Below, in pieces: positions 6,793 through 8,664 of a stretch of 30,723 nt of DNA. Position 1 is the first letter of the stretch. Each line of letters opens with the position of its first letter. The stretch lies in the IMG/VR virus record IMGVR_UViG_648276647_000020. One strand, given 5' to 3'. Below the pieces are notes generated by a model. That model searched no databases and was not told where the DNA came from. It saw only the letters and a program-made list of their open reading frames with translations. A program made the position numbers and the translations under genes. The DNA comes from a virus. Lineage: Duplodnaviria; Heunggongvirae; Uroviricota; Caudoviricetes.

Positions 6793-7344
6793 ATGAGTCG
6801 CACATCCCTGATTAAATTAATCCATGTCGCCCGTCGGGAGCTACAACTCGACGACGACACTTACCGCGCTTTTCTGATGCAGAAAACGGGCAAAATCAGT
6901 TGCCGCGAGCTGACGGTAACGCAACTGGAACAGGTGCTCGATGCCATGAAAGAACGCGGCTTTAAGAAGCTGAATAAACATCCACGTCGCCGCTTTAAGG
7001 GGCATGTCACGCCCCGCGAGAAGGTATACAAAGTCTGGCAGCAGATGGCAGAAGACGGTTTTATTACCGATGGCGGTGATGTGGCGCTGGATAAATATGT
7101 TCAGCGCCTGACGGCGAAACGTAATGGCGGACAGGGTGTTTCCACGCTGGCGTGGTGCCATGGCGACACGCTGCTGACAGTCCTCGAAACACTCAAGCAG
7201 TGGCACATCCGCTGTATTCGTGAAGCCTTTTCCCGTCACGGGCTTCCGTTGCCGGTCAGTCCGTCCGGGCGTGAACTGCGCGGCTATGACGCCATGACGG
7301 CGGCTTATGCCCATGCCAGAAAGACACGGAGGATGGCACAATGA
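6793..7344 (+). CDS. gemA: GemA-like (Mu gp16) regulatory protein
   Basis: 183 aa, N-terminus MSRTSLIKLIHVARRELQLDDDTYRAFLMQ.... Position immediately upstream of and overlapping mor (ATGA). SD ggagg. Confidence 0.7.
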   Translation: MSRTSLIKLIHVARRELQLDDDTYRAFLMQKTGKISCRELTVTQLEQVLDAMKERGFKKLNKHPRRRFKGHVTPREKVYKVWQQMAEDGFITDGGDVALDKYVQRLTAKRNGGQGVSTLAWCHGDTLLTVLETLKQWHIRCIREAFSRHGLPLPVSPSGRELRGYDAMTAAYAHARKTRRMAQ

Positions 7345-7730
7345 CGGAAGATTTATTTGGTGATTTGCAGGATGACACCATCCTGGCACATCTTGACAAT
7401 CCCGCCGAGGATACGTCACGCTTTCCGGCACTGCTGGCGGAGCTGAACGATTTACTGCGCGGGGAATTGTCCCGGCTGGGTGTTGATCCTGCCCATTCAC
7501 TGGAGATTGTTGTGGCTATCTGTAAGCATCTGGGCGGCGGTCAGGTCTACATTCCACGCGGTCAGGTTCTGGACTCGCTGATTCGGGATTTGCGTATCTG
7601 GAATGATTTTAACGGTCGCAACGTCAGCGAACTGACCACCCGTTATGGTGTCACTTTCAATACGGTTTACAAGGCCATTCGCCGGATGCGACGGCTGAAA
7701 TACCGCCAGTACCAGCCCTCACTTCTGTAA
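7341..7730 (+). CDS. mor: Mor-like middle-operon transcription activator
   Basis: 129 aa. C-terminal HTH region (YIPRGQVLDSLIRDLRIWNDFNGRNVSELTTRYGVTFNTVYKAIRR) is paralogous to the C protein at 8151. Followed by a terminator. Confidence 0.85.
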   Translation: MTEDLFGDLQDDTILAHLDNPAEDTSRFPALLAELNDLLRGELSRLGVDPAHSLEIVVAICKHLGGGQVYIPRGQVLDSLIRDLRIWNDFNGRNVSELTTRYGVTFNTVYKAIRRMRRLKYRQYQPSLL

Positions 7731-7737
7731 ACAGTAA

Positions 7738-7761
7738 AGCCGGTTAATCCGGCTTTTTTTA
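7738..7761 (+). terminator. rho-independent terminator after mor (end of early operon)
   Basis: Perfect hairpin AAAGCCGG (7738-7744) / loop TTAAT / CCGGCTTT (7750-7757), followed by a T-run to 7761. Confidence 0.8.
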
Positions 7762-7807
7762 CGTCCTCAATATCCTGTGATGAATAACCGTACCGGGGGA
7801 AATCATC

Positions 7808-8038
7808 ATGGGTAAAGGCTGGAATGCATCCTTTCATCTTGGCAGACGTGAGCGGCTGCGTCAGGAGGTTTTACACCGTGTCGCCGGTGGGCCACGTCCT
7901 GCGCCCCGCGACTATACCGGTCATGATGGCACCCACGGAAGTTATTACATGAAAGGCTGGCAGTCGGTTGATATGCCGGAAATTCTTCACCACTGCCAAC
8001 GTTATAAGGAAAAATATCATGTACAGAAAATTCAGTGA
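7808..8038 (+). CDS. hypothetical small protein between mor and C
   Basis: 76 aa ORF with SD ggggga upstream. Overlapped by minus-strand ORFs, so coding status is uncertain. Confidence 0.4.
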   Translation: MGKGWNASFHLGRRERLRQEVLHRVAGGPRPAPRDYTGHDGTHGSYYMKGWQSVDMPEILHHCQRYKEKYHVQKIQ

Positions 8039-8150
8039 TGAATGTTTCGGGCCGTCCACGCTGATTAATGCGATAAAAGTGATTGCCCTTGTGGTTCTGA
8101 TAACCATCAGTGCCGTGGTGTATCTTTCTGTCTGTTAACCGGGGGAAAAT

Positions 8151-8573
8151 ATGCAGCATGATTTATTTGAACACGATCCGGCAATTCGCCAGTTAATCGG
8201 ACATATTGATAACATCCCGGCCCCGGAACTGGAATCACGCTGGCCCCGTTCGGTGGTTGATCTGATTGATGTTCTGGAAAACGAACTGAAACGCCAGAAC
8301 GTCAGCAATCCCCGTGAGCTTGCCCGTAAACAGGCCGTTGCCCTGTCCTGTTTTCTGGGCGGGCGGCAGTTTTATATCCCCTGTGGCGATACTATCCTGA
8401 CCGCGTTACGCGACGATTTGCTTTACTGCCAGTTCAATGGTCGTAACATGGAAGAACTGCGTCGCCAGTACCGCCTGTCCCAGCCGCAGATCTACCAGAT
8501 TATTGCCCGCCAGAGAAAGCTGCATACACGGCGTCATCAGCCTGATCTGTTCTCACCTGAAAGCCCAAAATAA
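8151..8573 (+). CDS. C: C-like late-gene transcription activator (Mor/C family)
   Basis: 140 aa; YIPCGDTILTALRDDLLYCQFNGRNMEELRRQYRLSQPQIYQIIAR parallels the Mor HTH region. SD ggggga. Confidence 0.85.
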   Translation: MQHDLFEHDPAIRQLIGHIDNIPAPELESRWPRSVVDLIDVLENELKRQNVSNPRELARKQAVALSCFLGGRQFYIPCGDTILTALRDDLLYCQFNGRNMEELRRQYRLSQPQIYQIIARQRKLHTRRHQPDLFSPESPK

Positions 8574-8594
8574 CCGGCATCCTGCCGGTTATTT
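8568..8594 (+). terminator. hairpin/terminator overlapping the C stop codon
   Basis: ATAACCGGCA / loop TCC / TGCCGGTTAT perfect inverted repeat (8570-8592) followed by ATTT. The U-tract is short, so it may be a weak terminator or processing hairpin. Confidence 0.55.
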
Positions 8595-8664
8595 CCTGTC
8601 ACCATAATCCCGCACCTGTCACCTGATTTTTTAGACTGCCATCAGAGCATTTTTTCAGGGAAGC
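8595..8664 (+). promoter_or_regulatory. candidate C-dependent late promoter upstream of lys
   Basis: Motif CATAATCCCGCACCT (8603-8617) shares CATAA(T/C)CCC and CCCGCACCT with the region upstream of gene I (16783-16807). Possible -10 TAGACT at 8632-8637. Confidence 0.45.

Follow-up and report, generated by a model that had tools for sequence, protein, structure and literature searches.

The DNA analysed here is a stretch of 30,723 nucleotides from a virus of the class Caudoviricetes (IMG/VR record IMGVR_UViG_648276647_000020), hereafter referred to as the window. It is a Muvirus genome, with about 98% identity to Mu, D108 and SfMu in the region from mor to C and also over 23 kb. This report deals with the interval of about 420 bp that separates the activator gene mor from the second activator gene, C (positions 7731 to 8150), together with the genes on either side. 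The interval is occupied by an intrinsic terminator, most of the middle promoter Pm and genes 18 and 20, all on the plus strand. In the annotation of Mu (AF083977), Pm, the terminator, the ribosome-binding sites and genes 18, 19, 20 and C stand at matching positions.

The gene mor (7341-7730, plus strand) encodes a protein of 129 aa that matches the Pfam Mor family (PF08765, E = 4e-33), and its region is about 98% identical to that of Mu, D108 and SfMu. Mor is the activator of the middle promoter, and mor is the last gene of the early transcript; the phage thus carries a cognate activator of its own. The early (mor) transcript has an intrinsic terminator at 7736-7760 on the plus strand, which was found by a terminator scan and is annotated as such in Mu and D108. 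Its hairpin (AAAGCCGGTTAATCCGGCTTT, 7736-7756) has an 8-bp stem and a 5-nt loop, is rich in G and C, and is followed directly by a tract of seven T residues (U7 in the RNA; 7754-7760). The predicted RNA fold has an energy of -14 kcal/mol (z = -4.0), and none of 200 shuffled sequences was as stable. A search of Rfam over positions 7500-8400 at permissive thresholds returned a single match, to sroD, whose 20.3 bits (E = 0.28) fall short of the gathering score of that family, 50. This match was rejected as terminator mimicry because it sits on the terminator hairpin.

The middle promoter Pm, about -61 to +10, lies at 7723-7793 on the plus strand, as given by the annotation of AF083977 (9163-9233) and by sequence identity to Mu. 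The initial annotation had proposed a comparison with the Mu Pm sequence. In the alignment, positions 7700-7798 match Mu at 100%, which covers at least -84 to +15 of Pm, so the mapped promoter of Mu carries over directly. The numbering was anchored on the primers of Ma & Howe 2015 (PMC4390567), in which JM6 spans -87 to -48; this places -57G at 7727, so that +1 falls on 7784 and the Mor dyad spans 7733-7748. The dyad is a 16-bp imperfect one on the plus strand, AGTAA-AGCCGG-TTAAT (AGTAAAGCCGGTTAAT), centred at -43.5 and identical to that of Mu. It agrees with the published description of the Mor site of Pm, namely 5-bp inverted repeats around a G/C-rich 6-bp spacer with the centre at -43.5 (PMC4390567), and the pattern AGTAA-N6-TTAAT has a single exact match in the window, at 7733. 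Just upstream on the same strand is the alpha-CTD or proximal UP-element subsite, -57 to -52 (GTAAAC, 7727-7732), which was taken from the same paper and checked in the sequence. This subsite, with its A3 tract (-55 to -53, AAA at 7729-7731), includes the mor stop codon TAA (7728-7730). In the terminator hairpin, the dyad makes up the left arm and the loop, so that the terminator overlaps the Mor site.

Downstream of the dyad, we read TATCCT (-13 to -8, 7771-7776, plus strand) as the -10 hexamer, the choice of hexamer being our own. There is no -35 hexamer, as the sequence at -35 to -30 is CCGGCT, with two of six matches to TTGACA; for Mu, Pm is likewise described as having a recognisable -10 and no -35 (PMC4390567). 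A generic sigma-70 scan did not call Pm, as expected for an activator-dependent promoter that lacks a -35. The transcription start is A7784 on the plus strand, transferred from Mu by sequence identity, and from the 100% identity to the mapped Mu promoter we infer that transcription would begin there solely in the presence of Mor. The transcript would open with a 24-nt leader (7784-7807, plus strand), which holds the Shine-Dalgarno sequence of gene 18 (GGGGG, 7795-7799), annotated as a ribosome-binding site in Mu; folding of the leader RNA gave no stable structure (z = +1.3). The core of Pm (-52 to about -8) is kept in relatives that carry different cargo downstream. The initial annotation had placed a Mor-dependent middle promoter in the roughly 420 bp between the terminator and C. 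It had the right neighbourhood, although not the right position, since Pm lies across the mor stop codon and the hairpin of the terminator, not further downstream. A start upstream of 7808, together with no translation of either small frame, had also been named as an outcome that would speak against the first account; by transfer from Mu the start does map upstream of that point, to 7784.

Gene 18 (7808-8038, plus strand) encodes gp18, a soluble basic protein of 76 aa that belongs to the Phage_Mu_gp18 family (PF26867, or the N-terminal part of phrog_2121). Its residues 1-73 match phrog_2121 with E = 1e-37 (1.2e-37 before rounding), and the family motifs are present, including the invariant residues M1, W5, S8, G12, R16, E20, G50 and W51. 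All homologues of gp18 carry a precomputed PF26867 assignment. The dN/dS ratio of gene 18 is 0.04-0.16 against relatives for which dS is saturated; judged by this coding constraint, gene 18 is a real gene under strong purifying selection. The 76-aa open reading frame had been offered as a possible membrane peptide. It is indeed a genuine gene, Mu gene 18, but hydropathy analysis of gp18 found no hydrophobic segment, and the product is soluble. The 3' tail of the gene (7990-8018, plus strand) is variable in the alignment with Mu and SfMu and ends at the junction where Mu has gene 19; it resembles the tails of distant relatives (QRYKEK...) and not that of Mu.

Other searches were less informative. 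The copy of Pfam that was searched has no family for gp18, gp19 or gp20 (PF26867 is newer than this copy), and NCBIfam has none for these three proteins either. A sequence-profile search of the PDB with gp18 gave nothing credible (best E = 0.72). The AlphaFold2 model of gp18, built from a 10-sequence alignment, has three predicted helices with a mean pLDDT of 53 and a pTM of 0.27, which is too poor for a fold search. A literature search on Mup18, Mup19 and Mup20 returned mouse major urinary proteins only.

The longest open reading frame of the interval lies on the minus strand (7806-8159, 117 aa), and comparable antisense frames were listed as 'putative' in the 1991 Mu record. That this frame is the real gene and the plus-strand frames are its shadows is, however, hardly credible. 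Gene 18 on the plus strand shows both strong purifying selection and family membership, whereas the antisense frame is split by the gene 19 cassette in Mu and has been dropped from the current Mu annotation (AF083977). It was rejected as a candidate because it has no matches in Pfam or PHROGs.

Gene 20 (8019-8138, plus strand) encodes gp20, a single-pass membrane peptide of 39 aa that is 100% identical to Mu gp20 and matches phrog_19823 with E = 2e-30 (1.8e-30). It starts at ATG 8019, behind the Shine-Dalgarno sequence AAGGA at 8006-8010, and its first 20 nt overlap the 3' end of gene 18; the two genes are probably translationally coupled. The peptide has the features of the Mu gp20 family (phrog_19823): a length of about 39 aa, the N-terminus MYR[KR]FS[DN]EC, one C-terminal transmembrane domain (TMD), and a gene position directly upstream of C. 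In AF083977 it is annotated as N-in/C-out with one TMD. A 19-codon hydrophobic open reading frame running from GTG 8079 to the TAA at 8136-8138 had been picked out earlier as a candidate membrane peptide. The frame exists and is credible as part of a membrane peptide, but its proposed start does not hold: GTG 8079 is an internal in-frame codon, and the 19 codons (8079-8138) are the C-terminal half of gene 20. The same gene is left uncalled by NCBI PGAP in the RefSeq E. coli prophages inspected. It is thus a gene that an annotation pipeline skips and that a reader working from the sequence only truncates at an internal GTG.

Immediately after 8018, the 372-bp cassette that holds gene 19 in Mu (from the ATG of gene 19 to the ATG of gene 20) is missing, as it is in SfMu. 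A holin/antiholin role for Mu gp19 and gp20 was proposed by Samanta et al. (cited in PMC9239132). In the citing study, Mu genes 19 and 20 are reported to be dispensable for lysis and not to be holins, and Mu gp20 caused no lethality on triggering with DNP, alone or together with gp19 (PMC9239132). By its position, gp20 is the product of a middle gene and not of a late one. On the published evidence for the identical Mu gp20, the peptide of the window would not act as a holin or antiholin. Genes 18 and 20 are accessory, being dispensable in Mu.

How far gp20 is a functional protein has to be weighed against its possible decay. Gene 20 may be non-functional and in decay, perhaps as what is left of the 5' end of an ancestral membrane-protein gene resembling gene 19, and may now serve only as a spacer or leader before C. 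Several observations point in this direction. Selection on the gene is weak, with a dN/dS of 0.4-0.5 and with differences at codon positions 1, 2 and 3 (15, 11 and 18, respectively) that are not concentrated at the third position. The family is very narrowly distributed, being confined to Mu phages of the E. coli type (7 clusters among 5.8 billion sequences, queried with a 5-sequence alignment). A 2-bp deletion in one prophage lineage, present in several E. coli prophages, shifts the frame and rewrites the C-terminus of gp20; alleles of the SfMu type begin with GTG; the first 10 nt of the gene (ATGTACAGAA) equal the start of a 19-like gene in a distant E. coli prophage; and Mu gene 20 is dispensable (PMC9239132). 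On the other side, the diverged homologues of the PEC422 type, a lineage about 40% identical in protein sequence, keep the open reading frame, the Shine-Dalgarno sequence, the N-terminal motif MYR[KR]FS[DN]EC.G and a TMD of equal hydrophobicity, its 19-residue core having a Kyte-Doolittle mean of 2.77 versus 2.75. Whole-codon gaps are sufficient to align the proteins of the two lineages, and the stop codon lies 12 nt before C in both. We consider decay rather unlikely, and there is moderate evidence for gp20 as a functional protein.

The initial annotation had further suggested that the interrupted palindrome CTGATaaccATCAG (8097-8110) could be an activator-binding dyad. The palindrome is present, and it falls within the TMD codons of gene 20 (L-I-T-I-S). 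The 420-bp interval contains six inverted repeats whose arms are 5 bp long and whose loops measure 0-8 nt; two of the six belong to the terminator hairpin. Dinucleotide shuffles gave 3.9 +/- 2.5 such repeats, with six or more in 23% of cases, and the mean over the whole window is 5.2 per 420 bp; the frequency of palindromes is therefore at chance level. Folding of the RNA from 8075 to 8165 found no significant structure (z = -1.3), and the minimum-energy fold bypasses the palindrome. Synonymous recoding of the arms, from CTGATAACCATCAGT to TTAATTACGATTTCA, would retain L-I-T-I-S.

A protein-binding role would mean that the palindrome is the target of a protein that regulates expression of C, or of one that activates or represses a second promoter close to the 5' side of C. 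It is a perfect 5+5 inverted repeat that lies 41-54 nt before the start codon of C, and all close relatives keep the arms unchanged, including one with an altered spacer. This conservation carries no information, since gene 20 as a whole is 95-100% identical in those relatives. In the diverged E. coli PEC422, the only diverged gp20 lineage found, the homologous codons are CTGCTTGCCGTAGT and the palindrome is lost. The first account had named a lack of conservation in relatives as an outcome that would speak against it; no conservation independent of the coding sequence was seen. Apart from its chance frequency, the palindrome bears no resemblance to the Mor site, and its geometry is wrong: if it were centred at -43.5, +1 would fall at about 8147, past the Shine-Dalgarno sequence of C, and the -10 would be TTAACC (8135-8140), so that its position suits neither a -10 nor a start. 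In Mu, moreover, C is expressed from Pm (PMC4390567, PMC9239132). A binding function is therefore extremely unlikely; the palindrome is incidental, without a function separate from coding, and is plain coding sequence for the transmembrane helix of gp20.

Gene C (8151-8573, 140 aa) with its Shine-Dalgarno sequence GGGGG (8141-8145) occupies 8141-8573 on the plus strand. Its product matches the Pfam Mor family (E = 9e-34), and the gene is annotated as C in Mu, D108 and SfMu. C is the activator of the late genes and the essential cargo of the middle transcript. It might be driven separately from Pm by an internal promoter that does not depend on Mor, as a consensus scan matched a sigma-70-like site, CTGCCA-16-TATCAT, at 7993-8020 (9 of 12 positions). 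But such matches occur at chance frequency (2 found versus 1.4 expected). The -10 of this site lies on the allele-specific junction of genes 18 and 20 and is not conserved, reading TATTGT in SfMu and having an entirely different context in Mu, and the resulting start would fall within gene 20. An internal promoter at this place is very unlikely, and the site was rejected as being at chance level and not conserved.

Taken together, we assign a probability of roughly 0.9 to the reading that the interval corresponds to the 5' portion of the middle operon of phage Mu, here as an allele of the SfMu type without gene 19. The reading is based on identity with mapped elements of Mu, the fold of the terminator, the coding constraint on gene 18 and the conservation of the gp20 open reading frame and its TMD. 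The start site and Mor-dependence in the phage of the window are predicted from its identity to Mu, and gp18 and gp20 are presumed to be translated. By transfer from Mu, early transcription would stop at the intrinsic terminator just 3' of mor, and the DNA of this terminator would double as Pm. A Mor dimer would bind the dyad at 7733-7748, standing in for a -35 element, while the alpha-CTD of RNA polymerase would bind the A-tract at which the mor stop codon also lies. Sigma-70 would use the -10 TATCCT, with transcription from A7784. The resulting middle transcript, about 0.8 kb, would carry gene 18, gene 20 and C, and C would then turn on the late promoters. All of these elements are already annotated in Mu (AF083977) or SfMu (KP010268), so the locus is ordinary and already known. 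The features from which the first account started (the 76-aa frame, the frame from GTG 8079 and the palindrome) were all found where it had put them, and the interval is now reclassified as a textbook Mu middle promoter and operon start.

Beyond this, the family of gp18 shows a linkage in more distant Mu-like phages and prophages. The distant set comprises Vibrio phage Martha 12B12, Shewanella MuM16-2 and prophages of Klebsiella, Enterobacter, Pseudoalteromonas, Aeromonas and other hosts. In every one of those examined, the stop codon of an endolysin gene marks the start of the gp18-family gene, and the linkage holds across three unrelated types of hydrolase: GH108, GH24 lysozyme and DUF5675. 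Like these phages, the window has a gp18-family gene with the motifs MGK[GN]W..S...GR..R...E and HDGT.QS.[FY]..GW.SV. In most of the distant phages, the gp18-like gene precedes genes for a GTA_holin_3TM-like protein, a TraR zinc-finger protein and a DUF2730 protein. DUF2730 is the family of Mu gp25, the 'releasin' by which the endolysin is set free from the membrane. The profile of phrog_2121 covers both the gp18-like and the holin-like segments. In the distant loci that were fetched, no C gene lies between mor and the gene for a gp27-like terminase small subunit. The window differs in that gene 18 is parted from the endolysin gene by gene 20 and C, and in that it has no GTA_holin_3TM-like gene.

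The adjacency of gp18 to endolysins hints at a role in lysis. We tentatively suggest, at somewhat less than even odds, that gene 18 is a stranded member of an ancestral lysis cassette driven by Mor, that gp18 is a conserved cytoplasmic partner or regulator of the endolysin/holin step, and that genes 18, 19 and 20 are relics. They would have been left over when C and a signal-anchored (SAR) endolysin with the releasin system took over lysis. If this is true, the window, which has neither the GH108 gene nor gene 19, represents the most reduced state. This linkage is the only forward-looking lead to come from the locus. It suggests a hypothesis, open to testing, on a protein that has been without an assigned function since Mu was sequenced, and it bears on the evolution of the 'holin-less' lysis of Mu.

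Compared with Mu (AF083977 / NC_000929), the window has the same Mor dyad, A-tract UP subsite, -10, terminator hairpin and ribosome-binding site of gene 18. Its gp20 is identical, its gp18 is identical but for the last ~10 residues, and C and mor come from the same family. Unlike Mu, the window lacks the 372-bp cassette of gene 19 (Mu gp19 has 120 aa and four TMDs); the last ~29 nt of its gene 18 are another allele, with the protein ending in ...CQRYKEKYHVQKIQ versus ...CLLYREKHYV in Mu; its gene 20 overlaps gene 18 by the 20 nt given above; and its predicted middle transcript is about 0.8 kb versus about 1.2 kb. The closest layout is that of SfMu (KP010268, where SfMu_18 is mor, followed by SfMu_19, SfMu_20 and SfMu_21, the last being C). 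Both have genes 18, 20 and C without gene 19; in SfMu the homologues of genes 18 and 20 measure 231 and 120 nt and again overlap by 20 nt, and the identity is 98.4% over 1301 bp. The two differ in the start codon of gene 20, which is ATG in the window and GTG in SfMu, and in a few point differences, such as S37F in gp20. The Mu-like phages that carry GH108 (Yersinia phage vB_YpM_5/6 and the E. coli 12A, elppa5 and PEC422 prophages) share the terminator and Pm core of the window to about -8 and have genes 18, (19), 20 and C in the same order. Their -10 is TATTCT, whereas that of the window is TATCCT, and their leader is different. They also carry an extra gene of 561 bp for a GH108 muramidase between Pm and gene 18, which overlaps the start of gene 18 and is absent from the window. 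The papers on SfMu and the Yersinia Mu-like phage mention neither gene 19 nor the GH108 gene. Since either of these two genes can be present or missing, the segment from Pm to C is a swappable cargo slot.

The interval between the mor terminator and C (7731-8150) is the 5' part of the Mu middle operon, as its matches to Mu-like phages and the assignment of its two flanking genes indicate. Positions 7300-8600 are 98.0-98.7% identical to Mu (AF083977), D108, SfMu (KP010268) and several Yersinia and E. coli Mu-like phages, and window positions 1-25000 match Mu at 98.6% identity across 89% of length. Both mor (7341-7730, plus strand; E = 4e-33) and C (8151-8573, plus strand; E = 9e-34) belong to the Pfam Mor family and have annotated counterparts in the records of Mu, D108 and SfMu. 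The strings described in the initial annotation, namely the terminator, a 76-aa ORF, an ORF from GTG 8079 and the palindrome CTGATaaccATCAG, all lie where it put them. Its observation is real, with parts misassigned, and its interpretation is partly right and wrong on the activator-binding site.

The middle promoter (Pm), which is activated by Mor, had been expected between the terminator and C. This general location holds, but Pm overlaps both the terminator and the mor stop. A comparison with the Mu Pm sequence had been proposed, and 7700-7798 is identical to Mu; the Pm annotation of AF083977 (9163-9233, for which the record cites PMID 8602357) corresponds to window 7723-7793. Pm numbering was fixed by the primer tables of Ma and Howe (PMC4390567), where primer JM6 spans -87 to -48 with -57 to -52 randomised in place of GTAAAC, so that -57G is window 7727. 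On this numbering, the adenines at -55 to -53 of the proximal UP subsite fall at 7729-7731 and share bases with the mor stop codon TAA (7728-7730); the 16-bp Mor element AGTAA-AGCCGG-TTAAT, centred at -43.5, falls at 7733-7748; and the start site would be A7784, all on the plus strand. The element agrees with the published description of the Mor site as two 5-bp inverted repeats around a G/C-rich hexanucleotide spacer (PMC4390567), and the exact pattern occurs only once in the whole window. The best -10 candidate is TATCCT (7771-7776, plus strand), and a sequence check of Pm found no -35 hexamer, in agreement with the published -10 without -35 (PMC4390567); this is why a generic sigma-70 scan misses Pm.

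The terminator scan places a plus-strand hairpin at 7736-7756, followed by U7 to 7760, with a fold of -14 kcal/mol (z = -4.0) that none of 200 shuffles equalled in stability. The Mor dyad falls on the left arm and loop of this hairpin, and promoter and terminator are therefore the same DNA. In relatives with different downstream cargo, about -52 to -8 is kept with two substitutions, and divergence begins downstream of it. By transfer from Mu, early transcription would pass mor and end at the hairpin and U-tract; as Mor accumulates, a Mor dimer would occupy 7733-7748, with alpha-CTD on the adjoining A-tract, and sigma-70 polymerase would open the promoter at TATCCT and initiate at A7784. The middle transcript would encode gp18, gp20 and C, and C would then switch on the late promoters, the first being Plys just downstream.

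A closely similar hairpin, GAAGCCGGT[T/A]AATCCGGC followed by T7-9, precedes the endolysin gene of Mu-like prophages from Klebsiella, Enterobacter and E. coli (at 1841-1865 in the fetched loci L004, L005 and L006, 1834-1858 in L007, 1838-1862 in L008, 1850-1874 in L009 and 1832-1856 in L011). It is near-identical to the Mu terminator/Mor-site hairpin, loop included, and is kept also where it is parted from mor by unrelated accessory genes. Such conservation is in keeping with a hairpin that serves both as terminator and as activator site and travels with the promoter.

The 76-aa ORF (7808-8038, plus strand) is gene 18 (phrog_2121, E = 1e-37), and its homologues are assigned to Pfam Phage_Mu_gp18 (PF26867). 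In comparisons with relatives whose synonymous divergence is saturated (dS 1-2), its dN/dS is 0.04-0.16, a substitution pattern that marks it as a real, constrained protein-coding gene. The suggestion that the small ORFs are genuine membrane peptides is borne out in part: gene 18 is genuine, and gene 20, with a transmembrane domain (TMD) in its product, probably so, but hydropathy reveals no hydrophobic segment in gp18, which is hence not a membrane peptide. The gp18 family is very small (16 representatives at E <= 1e-3 in a profile search of 1.84 billion entries); modelling of gp18 gave a poor structure (pLDDT 53) with three helices, and no PDB relative was found. The same 11-nt string ACCGGGGGAAA, Shine-Dalgarno included, precedes gene 18 (7792-7802) and gene C (8138-8148). 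An antisense ORF of 117 aa (7806-8159, minus strand) crosses the whole interval; it hits no family and is in all likelihood a shadow of the genes on the plus strand. Similar 'putative' antisense ORFs in the 1991 Mu record were later dropped.

The hydrophobic ORF from GTG 8079 does lie in a probably genuine coding frame, but the supported start is ATG 8019. Its 19 codons to TAA 8136-8138 are internal to, and in frame with, the longer ORF and, judged by sequence, make up the latter half of Mu gene 20 (plus strand; AAGGA at 8006-8010; phrog_19823, E = 2e-30). The predicted product, MYRKFSDECFGPSTLINAIKVIALVVLITISAVVYLSVC, is 100% identical to Mu gp20, annotated in the Mu record as N-in/C-out with one TMD. 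Gene 20 is conserved: a diverged allele that PEC422-type prophages of E. coli carry, encoding MMYRRFSNECSGMATLLMVMKGITVIALLAVVTGICLLVFR, retains the start context, the N-terminal motif, an equally hydrophobic TMD and a stop just before C. Constraint is weak (dN/dS 0.4-0.5, third-position changes not in excess), and a homologue search found the family only in these Mu-type phages. Gene 20 is probably functional. In Mu, genes 19 and 20 are reported to be dispensable for lysis, and DNP triggering of gp19 and gp20, singly or jointly, was non-lethal; these proteins are therefore not holins (Chamblee et al., PMC9239132).

The palindrome CTGATaaccATCAG (8097-8110) occupies codons L-I-T-I-S of the gp20 TMD, and the proposal that it is an activator-binding dyad fails on several counts. 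The interval holds six inverted repeats with 5-bp arms, two of them the terminator itself, against 3.9 +/- 2.5 expected from dinucleotide shuffles; six are reached in 23% of shuffles, and the whole-window mean is 5.2 per 420 bp. Its conservation in relatives had been put forward as a check: it is invariant in close relatives, which is uninformative, gene 20 as a whole being 95-100% identical among them, but the homologous stretch of the PEC422 allele is non-palindromic. It has no resemblance to the Mor site, and setting it at -43.5 would give a start at ~8147, past the C Shine-Dalgarno (8141-8145), with TTAACC as the -10. The RNA fold of 8075-8165 falls short of significance (z = -1.3) and pairs differently from the palindrome. 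We conclude that the palindrome is incidental.

Several further features of gene 20 were observed. The first 32 nt (8019-8050) are identical at 29 positions to the PEC422 prophage (L015, 2757-2788), and the remainder at ~50%; this stretch holds a 5-bp inverted repeat, ATTCAgtgaTGAAT (8030-8043), whose arms are kept in PEC422, and its first 10 nt, ATGTACAGAA, equal the start of a 19-like gene in a distant E. coli prophage (L011, 2712-2721). A recombination junction, a constrained N-terminal motif or an origin of gene 20 in the 5' end of some 19-like gene are possible explanations. A 2-bp deletion near the 3' end (homologous to 8120-8121; E. coli Z0117EC0036 prophage, L017), with at least three complete E. 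coli genomes carrying it, rewrites the C-terminus; the frameshifted L017 gene ends ...VVSFCLLTGGKYAA, crossing the C start codon. PGAP makes no gene 20 call in the inspected RefSeq E. coli genomes with the Mu-type allele (L013, L017, L019), leaving an apparently empty ~110 bp gap before C; among inspected genomes it calls only the diverged PEC422-type gene (L015).

The gene neighbourhood of gp18 points towards lysis. In enterobacterial relatives (gp18 64-71% identical), the gp18-like gene directly follows a GH108 + PG_binding_3 endolysin and precedes, in order, the genes for a 19-like protein with several TMDs, a protein of ~200 aa, a TraR zinc-finger protein and a member of DUF2730, the family that includes the Mu gp25 'releasin', which detaches endolysin from the membrane. 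Twenty further gammaproteobacterial loci (Pseudoalteromonas, Vibrio, Aeromonas, Rheinheimera, Alishewanella, Photobacterium, Plesiomonas and others) all have an ORF of 144-199 aa ending within ~10 nt of the gp18-like start. This ORF was of peptidoglycan-hydrolase type in all 15 loci scanned: 11 GH108, two Phage_lysozyme and two DUF5675, a DUF5675 protein having been inferred as the Martha 12B12 endolysin (PMC9239132). The downstream neighbour was holin-like, by a match to phrog_1544, PF11351 GTA_holin_3TM or phrog_3427 'holin', in 9/14 scanned loci. The phrog_2121 profile (284 positions) spans a gp18-like part (3-84) and a holin-like part (89-284), which suggests that some members may be fusions of the two. 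The papers searched contain no discussion of the gp18-endolysin linkage. This linkage suggests, short of proof, that gp18 has a part in lysis and that Mu genes 18-20 are what is left of an older Mor-driven lysis cassette.

In all distant Mu-like phages and prophages examined (L004-L011, L013-L016, L020-L041; gp18-like gene at ~2501 or 4001), the gp18-family start lies at or overlaps the stop of an endolysin gene (GH108, GH24 lysozyme or DUF5675), and the usual downstream set is a GTA_holin_3TM-like, a TraR zinc-finger and a DUF2730 protein. Near-Mu phages with a GH108 muramidase gene between Pm and gene 18, i.e., in the middle operon, comprise Yersinia phage vB_YpM_5/6 and the E. coli 12A, elppa5 and PEC422 prophages (1586-2146 in L013 and L014, 1613-2173 in L015, 614-1174 in L016). 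A second lysozyme-type gene follows C; it is of Mu type in L013, L014 and L016, and L015 has a different glycoside hydrolase at that place. These loci therefore carry two muramidases that differ in their temporal control.

Compared with Mu and D108, 372 bp are missing from the window, exactly from the gene 19 ATG to the gene 20 ATG, and genes 20 and 18 consequently overlap by 20 nt, with a predicted middle transcript of ~0.8 kb. Forms with and without gene 19 each occur several times among the E. coli prophage matches listed. In PEC422, the annotated start of the 19-like gene (L015, 2378-2757) seems too late; an in-frame ATG overlapping the gene 18 stop would give the N-terminus MFKRF..., comparable to MYRKF of gp20. 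The last 29 nt of gene 18 before the junction (7990-8018) are a different allele from that of Mu, with a tail (QRYKEK-H-V-Q) like those of distant relatives and unlike that of Mu; on this allelic evidence, gene 19 was not simply lost from Mu by a recent deletion. SfMu lacks the same 372 bp relative to Mu and D108, and all elements of the interval were already known, having been annotated previously in Mu or SfMu.
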